A DNA stretch of 20,639 bases from a virus. Its lineage: Duplodnaviria > Heunggongvirae > Uroviricota > Caudoviricetes. The position numbers were made by a program. Shown piece by piece: positions 1 to 6,000 of this stretch (the first letter of the stretch is position 1; each line of letters begins with the position of its first letter). The stretch is from IMG/VR virus record IMGVR_UViG_2648501143_000006, one strand, 5' to 3'.

Positions 1-3000
1 CTATTTCTTCTCTGTAATTTTTACACTGTTTTCCAACTGCTTGATGCTGACCTGCGGGGTCGGCAACTCCTCAGGCATGGTTCCGCCAAGTTCCTGAATG
101 GTTTGCCTCACCTTGCTACCCACGTCAAAGTGTGTGGTATTAGCTTGCTGTGCTGCCTCAACCAATTGTTTGTTATGTTCTTTCAACTCATTTCTCAGAA
201 ACAGACGCTTTTCGTCTTCACGAAGTTGCTTAAATGCTTCATCGTCAGCAAGCTCCTGCCGTCGGGTCTGGATAGCAAAATAAGTCTGCCCTGCCGCAAT
301 GACCGGTTTCGCGGGGTCGCCGTTTTGTACTACCAGGTAACAGGCATAGCGGGAGAGTACGATGTCTTTTAATGCTCTTTTGGCATTTGAGCCAATTTTG
401 ACCATATCGAGGATCTCCTCGAAATGGTCATCAATTGTGTGACCACTGTTCTCACAGGCCTCTTTGGCGCGCGTTAATACAGGTATAAAGTGACGATACT
501 CTGAATAACCCAGTAGTTTCCCAAGTTGTCTTGCTGACCATTGTTCTGCTCCGTTTGCATTAATCAGTTTTATCTCTTCAAAAGGTTGATGATGTTCGTT
601 CATTGCCCACTCCATGTGATATCGATTGCAAAGAAAGTAAATCTGTAACTGTATTTATATACAGTTGTGAGTATCTCACGTTCTCAGTGTGCTGGGCAAA
701 AAAACATCGCAAAATCTGGAGCAGGCACGCAAAACAGAATTGAAGTTGCGGGGAAGAAAAATGCCGCTCTGTTTGAGTGGGCGGCATTTGTGAAGGCTGA
801 AAAGTAAGAATTAGTGTTACAAGTTACTCAATATTGAATCTGTTTGTAGAGTATTGGCTTCAATGCCGCATTGTAGCTGGTTTCTTCCTAATGCGATTTT
901 TGATTATGTACACCCTTATGTACACGGTTTTTTCGGGTGCTTTGGTCAGAAGCCATTGCCTACATCCCTCACGATCGAGGTGTGTAACCATGTTCAGGCT
1001 TGTTGTCCTGCGCGCGCGTATTGCTCGTGAAATTGCTGTACCCAATAGTGATGTCCGAAAAAACCTCCGTTCTCACATGAAACAGCCATATGCAACTGGT
1101 AACTGAACAGACTGGTAGACCGTTCGTTCAGTAAATACCTGATATTTTCGCCAACGAGAAATTGCGTTGGCTGGCAGGGTGCAAATTTGCACGATGGACT
1201 AACCCATTGATTCTTTCGAAAACCCCCATTGGGGGAAAAGCCTAACCCATTGGTTTTCCCACAATCCTCAATTTGAGGAATGTACCTAAAACCATTTTTA
1301 TAGCTCCGATCCCTTCAAAGTGAGGGGTAATTTGCCAAAACAGAGAGAGCATTACTGTCTCTGGCAATCTTTATCGCGATAACGCCTGAAGTACCCTCTA
1401 GCTTCCTCATCCATACCAAGAGCCGAATGAGTCCGCTTAACTGCCTGTCTTAAATCTCCGAATCTGTCTGTAGTTGCTGGTGGGCGTGCCGCCTTACGGA
1501 TACATTCAGAGCGTCTGTTTGCTGCATGTTCACGTTCTTTATCGCCATCTGCCAGCATCATGACTTCTGCCCATCGTGCGGCAGCTCTCCGGTATAGCCC
1601 TTTTGACTCCAGCTCTTCAGCTTTCCTGTCCCTTATCATTTCTGCCTCTCAGATTATATAGATAAGCAAAAAGGTGTTGGTTCAGTTGGTTCAATTTGTA
1701 AAGATCGTTGTTTTTATTATATTTTTTCTAAAATATTGAACCAACATCAACTCATTTTGAACCAACACAGCCCAGCTCTGAACCAACAACACAGCGATAG
1801 CTTTGTGATTGGTCCGTTATTTTCTGGCTGATATTTGAGCGTATAACAGTGTTATACAGTGGTATACTGTATGGATATTACTCACTGATATGGTCTTTGC
1901 AATGAGCAAATCTAATCTGGTCGCGTTCCGCATCCCATCTGAATTGCAGGATGAGTTTAATCGGTCTGTTCTCGCTTCTGGAGGGGATAAAACCTCCTGG
2001 CTTGTTGATGCGATTCGCATGAAGCTGGGACAGCCGGAAAAGTCTATTGATTCACGAATGCTTGGGCTGGTGGAGCGCATGGAAAAAGCTGCTGCGTCGC
2101 TTATTGCCGGAAAGCCGAACATCCCACCAAAGCCATATAACGAAACGGCAGTTATAAAGATCATTGCCGATACCATCCGACAGGGATTTGATAATGGGCG
2201 TGTGATAGCGGAACGGCTCAATGAAGCAGGCTATCAAACAAAAGCTGGTAAAGCATGGGATAAAGACATTTACAGCGCGTGGAAGCGTCAGGGAAGCAAT
2301 GCTGAAAAGTTATCAGTGGCTCTAAGAATGTAGCCCTATATTTTGATTTTTAGACGTGCTTGGAGAACAGGTAGCGTGCCATCACTAAAACAATGCCAAA
2401 GACTTCAGCGAGGGTTCCCCCCATAAATAGGTTTATAACGAAATCACTAAAATGGAGCAGTTTTGCTCCAATAAGGACAAAAATCCCATTCATAACTAAT
2501 AGCTGGCCTATCAGAATGCCGATAAACCACCGAGCAAACATTTTTTTCAGTTTTGTGTCTGTTTTTAAATCTTTTGTTTTTGCACGCTGATGGGCTTTGG
2601 CTGGATCCTCATCATTTAGATGTGTGAGGGTTTTTGCTGATGGTGATGAGCCAGAGGCTGGTTCACCTCTGGCTTGTCTTGCCGCTTGCTTTAGTTTTTC
2701 AGATATAGCGTAAGATCTAGACGTCATTACTCATCGAAGCCCTAAATTCTTTAGGCGATAACGTATAGCATCATCGGATACACCAAAATAGGAAGCCATC
2801 ATTACTGGTGCATATCCTGCATTGTTGAGGCGTCGAACCTCTTTTTCTGGCATGAGAAGACATGCTGCAAAGTTATTGGCGAATATTTCTTCGCTGTCTA
2901 CACCTTGGCTTGCCAGTTTTCCGCGGTAATCAACAAACTCATATTCAAGTGGCTGACCGTTCTCAGTTCGTTTGACGTAATGCCCTAACTCATGCGCACA

Positions 3001-6000
3001 CGTAAATCGTTTGCGCACGTTACTATCATTACGATTGAGTATGATTACTGGATCTTGTTCTGGCTCTTTCAGCAATGCGCCTGAAACATCATCATCAAGC
3101 GTGGTTTCAACAACATCCAACCCTAACTCATTGGCAATCCATACTGGATCAACCGGGAATTTCCTATCGCCCCAGATATCTTTCAAGAGGGCATGTGCAG
3201 ATGTATTCGACATGTTCACCTCCTTTGATTATGGTTAAATAGTCGAAATTTTCACCACTTCCCTTGTGGATATATTTACATATAAAAGGTAACTAGTCAC
3301 TAACCAACACAAATCTTTTTGAAGACAGATGGGGGGTGTTGAACGGTTTTTAAATGATTTCTTTGATTTTTAACAGCAATAAGGAGCATTTTTAATGAAA
3401 TTAGACGTTGATAATAACTTTTTGAGCAATCTTTACATATCATGGTAGCCTTCTATGCTGTTTTTCCAACTAAAAGATTGGCACATTTATCCGCTGGTAG
3501 TGGCGTTTTTTCGCCGCCAGCGCCTCTCTGGTTCCATTCCTTACATCTGTTCAAATTCAGCAACCCTTGCCGCGATCTTGCCGTTATCGAGAAGCTCTTT
3601 CGCTTTTCGGTTAATACTATCGGTCTTCATATTGCCAGCAGCATACGCCATCCGATAATTTCGATGCTACGCGCGCGTACTTGTCGCAAAATATCAGGCA
3701 AAGGCCAGATTCAGAACGTCGTGATAACCACCAGCACAACATGAGATGTCATGTAACGCGATTTATCACACCAGATACATGTGATTGGTGTACCCGCATA
3801 AAACATCGTCATAGCGCGTCCTGTGCGCATATACGCCGATAATCAACACATCACCACCACTCTGTCTCATGTAGAGAACACTTTTATGGTATCCCCCGCC
3901 ATCGTGCGCGTACTAGTCGGACGCAGTTGCAAAACTTTTTGCAACTGATACCCCTCGCGCGCGTACTTGTCTCGAAATTGGTGTTTTGCTGTGGCAGTGA
4001 TATCAGAAAAATCTTCCTGTTTCACATAAAGCGGATATGCGCGTACTGTAACGACCCCATCAACGGGGGCGGATTTGAAATCCCGACCCAAGCTATGTAC
4101 CAAATGCCATGTCTTGGATATATGATGATTGCCATTCTAAACAACGCTAAAGGGAGGGTTGGTGTGAATCAATTGAAGCGATTGGTTGTCTCCGGTTTAT
4201 TATTTGCTTCTTTTGGAGCGAACGCTGAATGCTGGATTATTGGTGATCTGAAAGGACAAGAAGCCTCAAGTTCAGATGGGTATAACTATAAGTTATCATC
4301 TATACCAGATACCTTTCATTTGGTAATAAGTAAAGAGAAGGCGGATCTTATCTTGGCAAAAGATGGTATAGGTGGAGGTATTGATTATTACCCGCTATCT
4401 CCGAATGCCATGATGGGAAGAAGCTATCGAGATGGTCAACTGACGCTTGTCACATGGGCAATCTCAAATGACGGAAAAGTGATCCATACACGAACAATTA
4501 GTCGATCTGATATAGGCTCATTTACAGGCTCATTTGTCGGCAATGTTAAAGGCAAGTGTTAATGTTCATAACTATTTGAAAAAATACTAATTACTATTAT
4601 AACCAACCATCCATGGCCATCTGTTATTGAGCTTCCTTTTGCGATGCTTGTGCTGCTGTGGTCAGTGATTGTGTGACCGTACTGATCGCTCTGTCATATG
4701 CTGTGCTACCTTTTGGCGTATTTGCCAGACGTAACAAGGCATTTCGTATAACAGGGCTTTCGTATGCCTTCGCTGCTCCGCCTACGGCACCAGCAGCAGG
4801 AACAACAAACGCAGCCGTTTTTAGCATCCCCGCTAATACTGCTGCGTTTATGATGCCACCACCAACTAACAATCCATAAAGCTGCTGACCATTTAAGTTT
4901 TGAACGTTCGCTTTTGCCGCGTGTCTTGTATCGTTGAGGTATTTAATAACGCCGTCCAGTTCCTTTCCATGTATGCCTTTAAAGAAAGTTGCTGATTGCT
5001 TCCTGTTCCGGTGTAACGCATTAATAAACTTCTCAACACTGATATTTCCAGACGGATCAGTCGCCTTATCTACAGCATTCTGAACTATGGCTGCTCGTGC
5101 GTTTTGCCTACCATTGTCATCCAGAAGCCTGTAAAGCTGAGAACGTTCTGATGGGCTTTGGCTAAAAACAAGTTTTGTTACATCCTCAGGCGTGGCCTTG
5201 CCGCTGGCTATTGCCTTTTGAACGCGCGTTCTTCCCATCATGTCATTGAATTTAGACCATGAGCGATCAACCCTTGCCATATTAATAGCTTCGTCTGCTC
5301 CAAGATTTTTGGCTACGGCTTTTTTCATATCCGCCGTATATGCCTTGTAGATAATATCGCTGGCTTTCTGGAGCGTATCTTTATCAACAGTGTCAGATGA
5401 CGCCATAAATCGCTTTCGAAGATCGGTTCTGTTTTCCCTCGCCAGACGCAGGTCATTTGGTCCGCTGGTGATATCGTCTTTAAATTGCTGCAAGACTTTT
5501 ACCGCGGCTCTATCCTGAGATTTGCCCGGGCGGCTTAACACGGCAATCTGATTGTCGATAGCTTTTACCGTGTTTGAGAGATCGACAGGGGTATCCCCCA
5601 TAGCGTCAATTATGCGGTTATATCGCTTTCCTGCTGCCTCAATGAATTTTTGTTGCCCTTTAGTCGCAGATTCATAAAGCTGTTTATCAGAAATGCCACC
5701 CAGACCATCGCTAAATGTTCTGACTAAATTTTCTCGTGCTTGTTGTTGATTCAGCCGATTCTTACCGGTTCCAAAAAAAGGAACTCTTTCGCCTAATGTC
5801 TGAGCCTGACTCTGCATAAAGGTTTTATCTTTCAGCATGTCACTGGTCATTAACGGCAGATTTCTTTCCGATGCAAAGTCGACAGCAGCCTTTGCTTCAG
5901 GCGACATATCACCACGAACAGCCCTCGAAACCGCACTCGCTGTATTTTCCAGCCCCTTACCAATACCACCAATGCCAGCAGAAATTACCGTTTGTAACGG

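Follow-up and report, generated by a model that had tools for sequence, protein, structure and literature searches.

The DNA considered here is a stretch of 20,639 nucleotides (nt) from the IMG/VR virus record IMGVR_UViG_2648501143_000006, assigned to the Caudoviricetes and referred to below, at its full length, as the window. The window (1-20639) represents an EcCIMP1-type phage-inducible chromosomal island located between dinD and yicC, two genes that are adjacent in most Escherichia coli genomes. The island backbone comprises an integrase, AlpA, an AntA/B antirepressor, Ash, a TOPRIM/DUF927 primase, DUF2824 together with P22-type ejection proteins, a ribbon-helix-helix (RHH)-like protein and PerC. 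Within this backbone lies a pair of genes that encode a short ImmA/IrrE-type zinc peptidase of the Peptidase_M78 family and, directly downstream, a small membrane protein with two predicted transmembrane (TM) helices. The pair is found in 69 of 5,426 complete E. coli genomes, in all cases on the chromosome and at an identity of at least 99.5%. Its elements, with lengths of gene products in amino acids (aa), are as follows.

2301-3599, no strand assigned: swappable cassette that holds both genes and about 380 bp upstream with its own promoter region, with island backbone on both sides.
2350-2727, minus strand: gene of the 125-aa membrane protein, predicted to have a charged tail in the cytoplasm, followed by a two-helix hairpin at the C-terminus.
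2374-2529, minus strand: two-helix TM hairpin (residues ~67-90 and 96-118), the proposed effector part, delimited by hydropathy, conservation and AlphaFold2.
2542-2727, minus strand: N-terminal tail (residues 1-62) with an amphipathic helix (~4-19), a disordered stretch and the juxtamembrane motif D53-x3-D57-T-x-L60-K61-K62; proposed docking/cleavage region.
2731-3213, minus strand: gene of the ImmA/IrrE-type (Peptidase_M78) zinc peptidase, 160 aa, with a peptidase domain and a short helical C-terminus and without a GAF sensor domain.
2980-2994, minus strand: HELGH (HExxH) zinc-binding and catalytic motif, residues 74-78, read from the sequence and conserved in the family.
3219-3225, minus strand: Shine-Dalgarno sequence AAGGAGG, 5 nt before the ATG at 3213, read from the sequence.
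3491-3505, plus strand: GC-rich hairpin followed by a T-run, terminator-like by consensus scan only, in the upstream part of the cassette.

When open reading frames (ORFs) are called in the window, the peptidase frame runs from 2731 to 3219 on the minus strand if read from a GTG, and a sequence-only reading of this DNA had accordingly described a 162-aa protein. However, this GTG (3219) falls within the Shine-Dalgarno sequence, an ATG (3213) follows 5 nt after it, and the RefSeq product is likewise 160 aa long; thus, the ORF and the family assignment stand, but the peptidase is 160 rather than 162 aa long and its true start is the ATG at 3213. The protein matches Pfam PF06114 (Peptidase_M78) with E=9.6e-20 and 71.1 bits (cut-off 22) over residues 30-157 of the 162-aa ORF, as well as phrog_87 'metallo-protease' (E=1.3e-25). 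Among PADLOC-DB v2 models, the best is capP, matched over positions 5-150 of 242 only, and RmrA and PDC-M69B are also matched; all three matches arise via the shared M78 domain only. Both signatures on which the family assignment had originally been based, HExxH and ANNFAACLLMP, are present in the protein. The third zinc ligand is Glu109, which aligns with the zinc-ligand Glu of CapP, the residue roles of the latter being taken from a published account (10.64898/2026.05.16.725639). In particular, His74 is invariant among 69 members of the peptidase family, and Glu75, His78 and Glu109 are conserved in at least 90% of them. The AlphaFold2 model (69 homologues) has a pLDDT of 89.9, and the solved folds that Foldseek ranks best are those of CapP (7T5T; E=1.2e-6 and a TM-score, normalised to the query length, of 0.67) and of IrrE/PprI, with a Mycobacterium tuberculosis regulator that contains an M78 domain also among the nearest structures; next to 7T5T, the best structural matches include 3DTE/8SLN. 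By sequence, motif and fold, the protein belongs to Peptidase_M78 and its catalytic motif is intact; proteolysis itself is predicted.

The peptidase resembles ImmA in size and carries no signal peptide. The loop that connects HExxH with the Glu ligand corresponds by homology to the switch loop of CapP, and it lacks a cysteine. CapP consists of a peptidase domain (1-141), an HTH-like region (142-182) and a GAF domain (182-288), and it senses single-stranded DNA (ssDNA) in the groove between peptidase and GAF domains (10.64898/2026.05.16.725639). CapP/IrrE-style ssDNA sensing was considered for the peptidase of the window and rejected, as the GAF domain is absent and the protein ends at residue 160.

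The two genes are separated by 3 nt, the TGA stop codon of the peptidase gene (2731-2733) being followed by GTA and then by the ATG (2727) of the membrane protein gene. Sequence and hydropathy agree with the earlier description of the downstream product as a 125-aa protein with a charged N-terminus and two C-terminal TM helices: residues 1-62 include 14 Lys/Arg and 7 Asp/Glu, and hydrophobic helices are located at ~67-90 and ~96-118. AlphaFold2 predicts a helix at residues 4-19, a disordered stretch at 21-41 and hairpin helices at 42-87 and 95-122, with a pLDDT of 74-87 in the hairpin. Basic residues flank the hairpin on both sides; therefore, both ends of the protein should be cytoplasmic, which would place the tail on the same side of the membrane as the peptidase. 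Pfam (in which the peptidase scores above the cut-off of its family), NCBIfam and PADLOC contain no family matched by the membrane protein, and its C-terminal part matches phrog_5346, a family of unknown function. A profile search of 1.84 billion cluster representatives (50% identity) places it in a family of 1,438 representatives at E<=1e-3, and all 150 relatives listed of these 1,438 are short (49-236 aa) and have the hairpin at the C-terminus.

An alignment of 41 relatives demonstrates that the hairpin is much better conserved than the tail, which varies in length and composition. The intramembrane polar positions Gln75, Gly104, Thr105, Glu108 and Gly111 are invariant, and Asn80 is nearly so. 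The tail keeps three short motifs, namely an amphipathic helix of the form 'hydrophobic-x-x-I/L-R/K-x-A-L', a 'DP' motif and the juxtamembrane D-x3-D-T-x-L-K-K, in which Asp57 and Leu60 are invariant and Lys61, Lys62 and Asp53 nearly invariant. This pattern fits an effector hairpin combined with a recognition tail, and the tail is the putative substrate of the peptidase. The two TM helices, the basic flanks and the conserved intramembrane polar residues would be compatible with a holin-like effector or small membrane toxin that permeabilises the membrane on oligomerisation; the protein has no homology to any named family. A metagenome protein of 195 aa (P0021) joins, through an in-frame deletion, residues 1 to ~148 of the peptidase with the membrane protein from residue ~69, so that both the tail and the peptidase C-terminus are missing. 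This single observation may represent an inactivated copy and, as the tail is lacking, is uninformative.

The association between the two proteins extends far beyond E. coli. A word-indexed search yielded approx. 60 relatives of the membrane protein and more than 180 of the peptidase, with matching sizes and with many of them on shared contigs. Scans with the membrane protein only, performed on one genome per species and on IMG/VR, revealed 30 loci (in Gamma- and Betaproteobacteria, Nitrospirota, Desulfobacteraceae, Balneola and a Bacillota metagenome-assembled genome) and 13 genuine loci, respectively. In all 30 genome loci and all 13 viral loci, and also in loci L001-L007 and L039, a member of the same M78 clade is encoded directly upstream on the same strand; altogether, this holds for 47 of 47 loci found via the membrane protein (46 further loci and the E. 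coli copy). Of 41 distinct loci, 40 have an intergenic gap between -4 and +15 nt, and one (L030) has a gap of 165 nt by its start call. Conversely, a search with the peptidase gave 59 distinct viral loci, of which 35 encode a member of this membrane family downstream, 16 a different small protein with two or more hydrophobic segments and 8 neither; a small membrane protein thus lies immediately downstream in 51 of the 59. Moreover, the pairwise identities of the two proteins co-vary (Mantel r=0.71, a value reached in 0 of 2000 permutations). In deposited phage genomes, neither near-identical DNA nor a tblastn match of the membrane protein was found, but IMG/VR contigs do hold the pair.

In a separate group of IMG/VR loci (L121-L139), the short M78 peptidases are more distant (35-40% identity), and the small two-TM proteins encoded after them do not belong to this family. 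It may be, therefore, that short M78 peptidases and small membrane proteins form a wider, recurrent arrangement in which the membrane partners are of several unrelated kinds.

The statement that the peptidase has no helix-turn-helix (HTH) partner was likewise borne out. No XRE/cI-type protein is present among the island proteins scanned in the window, where the sole HTH belongs to AlpA (HTH_17), 15 kb from the pair. Pfam searches revealed no recurring HTH/XRE family, either within two genes of the pair on each side in 31 loci (111 proteins) or, for six phage contigs, within five genes on each side (58 proteins). The pair is uncharacterised, no paper and no Pfam, NCBIfam or PADLOC entry that covers it having been found.

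These observations bear on the possibility that the enzyme is a derepression protease acting in trans, which would cleave the RHH protein, a cI-type repressor of a helper phage or a host regulator, while the membrane protein would be a co-transcribed moron serving, for example, in superinfection exclusion. The characterised relatives ImmA, IrrE/PprI and CapP all cleave repressors, the RHH gene is adjacent to the pair in the window, and cleavage of a helper repressor would make biological sense, as the island needs a helper phage (PMC11773190). However, the linkage in 47 of 47 loci and the co-divergence persist where there is neither phage nor island, as between cysD and cysN or between flgT and flgN, and no HTH protein recurs nearby. 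Strict linkage and co-divergence outside phages and islands argue for mutual functional dependence of the peptidase and the membrane protein, and action in trans is considered improbable.

In particular, the sequence-only reading had proposed the convergent RHH-like protein (1902-2333) as a substrate and had tied the pair to an RHH/PerC operator array through a shared promoter motif, and neither proposal survived. In phmmer searches, all matches to the RHH protein were in island backbones of E. coli, some of them from islands that lack the pair; it is retained where the neighbouring cargo is an Abi_2 gene (L038) or a 73-aa gene (L057), and outside E. coli no locus with the pair has it. The idea of the RHH protein as a substrate was thus rejected on co-occurrence. 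As for the motif, the 8-mer AACCAACA is located at 3302-3309, within a site (3301-3309) that reads TAACCAACA, whereas the PerC/RHH array is in fact built of (T)GAACCAAC units, five of which occupy the intergenic region. The copy at 3301, which reads TAACCAAC, differs from that unit by one mismatch, as do 20 further copies in the window (21 one-mismatch copies in total; chance expectation 14.6 for matches of all kinds), and no copy lies upstream of the Abi_2 cassette that fills the same position in a sibling island. The link through AACCAACA therefore comes down to a single imperfect copy at chance level, and a shared operator was rejected. SOS control of the pair is not supported either, since the sole LexA-like site upstream (3361-3376) is mismatched in the critical CTG.

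The GAACCAAC repeats themselves form an iteron array at window positions 1676-1787, with five copies, two inverted and three direct, at 21-nt spacing. The related island L038 has two arrays of six copies each (14614-14734 and 23073-23183), one of which lies immediately 3' of the primase gene. The iterons could serve as an island replication origin or as regulator operators.

The genomic settings of the pair are diverse. In several Pseudoalteromonas it lies between flgT and flgN-flgM, and in Methylobacter between cysD and cysN; in Pectobacterium and Plesiomonas it is carried by satellite-like islands that encode AlpA and a primase of the TOPRIM/DUF927 or DUF927 type. It also occurs in accessory regions of Mu-like and P2-like prophages, and its neighbours in phage contigs are accessory genes, including those of methylases and nucleases. 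MzaA or MADS genes border the pair at a few loci, and many loci are in housekeeping contexts. As the neighbours differ between loci, the pair moves as an autonomous two-gene cassette and, judged by this distribution, is one widespread, self-contained and horizontally mobile module.

It might also be supposed that the pair serves the life cycle of the phage or satellite, either in lysis timing of the holin/antiholin type or as an injection or exclusion factor regulated by proteolysis. With its two TM helices, cytoplasmic termini and basic ends, the membrane protein presumably resembles class II holins, and the pair is present in Mu-like and P2-like prophages and, in the island, beside ejection-protein genes. 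Such a role is nonetheless very improbable: many loci are outside phages, the pair in phage contigs lies among accessory genes and outside lysis cassettes, and the slot that it occupies in the island is dispensable and variable.

This slot was delimited by comparison with L038, an island at the proA/tRNA-Thr site that is 95-99% identical to that of the window and whose neighbours Vat, MarR and yagU agree with the map published for EcCIMP1. The latter, carried by E. coli MP1, is a phage-inducible chromosomal island that is mobilised by the P22-like phage Kapi1 and contributes to superinfection immunity, yet known defence systems were not found on it (PMC11773190). The window island has AlpA, the antirepressor, Ash, the primase, DUF2824 with the ejection-protein genes and PerC in common with EcCIMP1 but differs in its attachment site (dinD/yicC) and in the cargo of the slot, and the pair is not mentioned in that publication. 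In blastn comparisons, the homology of L038 to the window stops at 2300 and resumes at 3600. In L038, the slot (15247-16592) holds, with its own upstream region and clean junctions, an Abi_2 gene (PF07751, E=1.1e-52). Homology to L057 (slot at 2173-2527) breaks at 2312 and 3661 of the window, and homology to L058 resumes at 3577; in islands other than L038, the slot is occupied by a 73-aa gene (L057) or by other hypothetical genes. Because homology breaks and resumes around the slot, the cassette at 2301-3599 can be recognised as one of several cargos, another of which is a recognised abortive infection (Abi) gene, and on this comparison the slot is a recombination-prone accessory site. The Abi_2 gene (AbiD/AbiF-like) of sibling EcCIMP1-type islands has the same slot, the same junctions and a similar size (~1.3 kb) as the cassette; however, it is an unrelated single-gene system, and a common role with the pair is argued from position only.

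At least four alternative cargos (the peptidase-membrane protein pair, Abi_2, the 73-aa gene and other hypotheticals) are thus found in E. coli between the RHH gene and a 211-aa gene. The left junction of the cassette falls within the final 33 nt of the RHH gene, and therefore the RHH C-terminus varies between variants. The terminator-like hairpin at 3491-3505 could insulate the cassette from neighbouring transcription. A 47-aa ORF (3300-3443, minus strand), upstream of the peptidase gene and co-directional with it, also lies within the cassette and is not annotated by RefSeq; it was considered as a hidden partner and discarded, as DNA similarity to the Pectobacterium cassette ends at ~3227, just upstream of the peptidase start, and it is probably no gene.

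The reading favoured here, at a confidence that falls a little short of an even chance, is that the pair is a protease-controlled membrane effector module that becomes activated upon phage infection. In this scheme, a small inner-membrane protein would replace the usual HTH repressor as partner and substrate of an ImmA-sized cytoplasmic zinc peptidase. The peptidase would recognise the tail of its partner through the amphipathic helix, the 'DP' motif and the juxtamembrane D-x3-D-T-x-L-K-K, and cleavage of the tail would control the hairpin. The latter, with its buried Gln, Asn, Thr and Glu, would be the effector proper: oligomeric, holin-like, and able to permeabilise or depolarise the membrane. 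As to the direction of control, the tail is proposed to hold the hairpin inert until a trigger provided by phage infection lets the peptidase cut it, whereupon the freed hairpin would collapse the membrane potential and abort the infection. In E. coli, the module, as island cargo, would protect both host and island from competing phages. The membrane protein as substrate, the toxicity of the hairpin, the direction of control and the phage trigger are the putative parts of this scheme. Activation on infection (abortive infection or exclusion) is favoured because the alternative cargo of the slot is an Abi gene and because characterised M78 peptidases destroy an inhibitory protein. The sequence-only reading had already suggested a protease-gated effector, in the sense of an abortive infection or toxin module. 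The context, through the exact Abi_2 swap and the solitary insertions between housekeeping genes, is in keeping with that suggestion, although the mechanism stays putative; overall, what endures of that reading is a standalone peptidase with a two-TM partner and no HTH protein, together with an effector role that fits the context, whereas the RHH substrate and the motif link do not. It is proposed more tentatively, and with somewhat lower confidence, that the pair is the first example of a widespread and so far unnamed class of two-gene immune modules, carried by satellites, prophages and chromosomes in several phyla, in which a sensor-less M78 peptidase gates a holin-like two-helix effector by removing its tail.

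Several points weigh against activation on infection. A peptidase of 160 aa without a sensor domain leaves the trigger unexplained, and the results fit either direction of control, activation or neutralisation. Toxicity, cleavage and a phage phenotype are what we infer from sequence and context. The co-divergence of the two proteins could partly stem from shared host phylogeny. The membrane protein has no match among PADLOC models, and a literature search for the pair, its accessions and phrog_5346 returned no description. Furthermore, recognised defence genes (MzaA, mad1/3/8, cll) are located within two genes on each side of the pair in a minority of loci, and because few loci are flanked by such genes, enrichment in defence islands is weak.

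If the direction of control were reversed, the pair would be an addiction module in which the membrane protein is a constitutive toxin and the peptidase an enzymatic antitoxin that keeps clipping it. If the cassette were lost or host expression shut off, the toxin would build up, and the module would stabilise the island or prophage, with defence as an optional side effect. COG2856/M78 proteins have indeed been listed as components of predicted XRE-COG2856 toxin-antitoxin pairs (PMC6929052). The gene order, with the regulator first and a small toxic-looking protein second at translational-coupling distances (-4 to +15 nt), and the solitary insertion between housekeeping genes are as expected of toxin-antitoxin modules, and the best NCBIfam match, far below its cut-off, is a 'repressor/antitoxin' family. 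On the other hand, a folded peptidase would have to be less stable than the membrane protein, and the alternative cargo of the slot in sibling islands is an Abi gene and no toxin-antitoxin pair. To our knowledge, there is also no precedent in the M78 family for a protease antitoxin that destroys a toxin. An addiction module, which differs from activation on infection in the direction of control only, is thus regarded as unlikely.

The roles of the two proteins could also be exchanged, such that the peptidase is a toxin acting on host or phage targets and the membrane protein is a tether or pseudo-substrate inhibitor, its tail filling the active site and keeping the enzyme membrane-bound until a signal, such as perturbation of the membrane by a phage, sets it free. 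COG2856 is the predicted toxin of the XRE-COG2856 pairs, the CapP chain was named 'CapP toxin' by its depositors, and the short conserved motifs of the tail would suit docking. However, a near-invariant hairpin with buried Gln, Asn, Thr and Glu is not needed in a plain anchor, and the supposedly inhibitory tail is the most variable part of the protein; the pairing of distant peptidases with unrelated two-TM proteins is compatible with either model. The probability of such an arrangement is therefore taken to be low, comparable to that of derepression in trans.

Other features of the island were recorded alongside the pair. The ejection-protein block (4624-9282) encodes gp7/gp20/gp16-like proteins and DUF2824 in an island that has no capsid, terminase or tail genes, a satellite with ejection proteins of its own. 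Upstream of the DUF2824/ejection-protein operon lies a perfect LexA-box-like site (CTGTATAAAACAACAG, 9476-9491), which suggests that this operon is under SOS control; a second perfect site (649-664) belongs to dinD. A second variable region (9863-12528) is unlike, or only weakly similar to, L001 and L038, which are otherwise 95-99% identical, and holds a 245-aa ORF, a 76-aa ORF and the 3' part of the primase gene. Three Rfam families score above their gathering thresholds, all on the minus strand: C4 antisense RNA (15971-16058), isrK Hfq-binding RNA (16083-16159) and int-alpA RNA (19305-19371), the C4 and isrK matches being within the Ash-family ORF (15512-16540).

The pair fills a swappable satellite cargo slot that holds an Abi gene in sibling islands, which makes it a good candidate for a phage-conflict system of a new kind. 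It may help to explain how EcCIMP1-type islands, for which superinfection immunity is reported without a recognisable defence system, protect their hosts. M78/ImmA-IrrE peptidases have so far been seen as repressor-cleaving switches that act in the induction of integrative and conjugative elements and prophages, in the Deinococcus radiation response and in the regulation of CBASS and BREX. A clade without a repressor, locked to a membrane protein, would extend this repertoire to a non-transcriptional output and, if the proposed scheme is true, the 'cleave-your-neighbour' logic of the family would have been rewired from derepression to direct activation of a killing device. The membrane family, large, uncatalogued and with proteins of ~120 aa, comes with a built-in candidate regulator and is therefore easy to test; a compact protease-gated pore, if true, would also offer synthetic biology a simple switch of two parts.

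Among catalogued anti-phage systems (PADLOC-DB v2), none had both of its components matched by the pair. The nearest characterised modules are ImmA-ImmR of ICEBs1 and prophages, IrrE/PprI-DdrO of Deinococcus and CapP-CapH of CBASS and further defence operons, which share with it the peptidase family, the fold and the HExxH motif with its Glu ligand, and in which the peptidase is likewise encoded beside its presumed substrate. The pair differs in that a two-TM protein takes the place of the XRE/HTH substrate. Moreover, in contrast to IrrE and CapP, its peptidase has no GAF domain and hence no ssDNA groove, a trait that it shares with ImmA, and unlike CapP it has no cysteine in the switch loop. 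Since the cassette ends after the membrane protein gene, there is no downstream operon to derepress, as there is in the ImmA, IrrE and CapP modules. The predicted XRE-COG2856 type II pairs resemble it as small mobile two-gene modules that contain a COG2856/M78 protein and are scattered in chromosomes and mobile elements; however, the partner here is no XRE antitoxin, and neither the gene order nor the membrane partner has a counterpart there. With an HTH partner not found and the GAF domain absent, the pair, as judged from its sequence, falls outside both of these classes. A likeness in presumed function may be drawn to bacterial gasdermins with their proteases and to RexAB, in which a protease or sensor gene lies beside a membrane-disrupting effector that is inactive until infection. 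This is a functional analogy only: the gasdermin-associated protease is of a different peptidase family, there is no relation in sequence or fold, and where gasdermins combine their own fold with a C-terminal inhibitory peptide, the membrane protein of the pair combines a hairpin of ~60 aa with an N-terminal tail.

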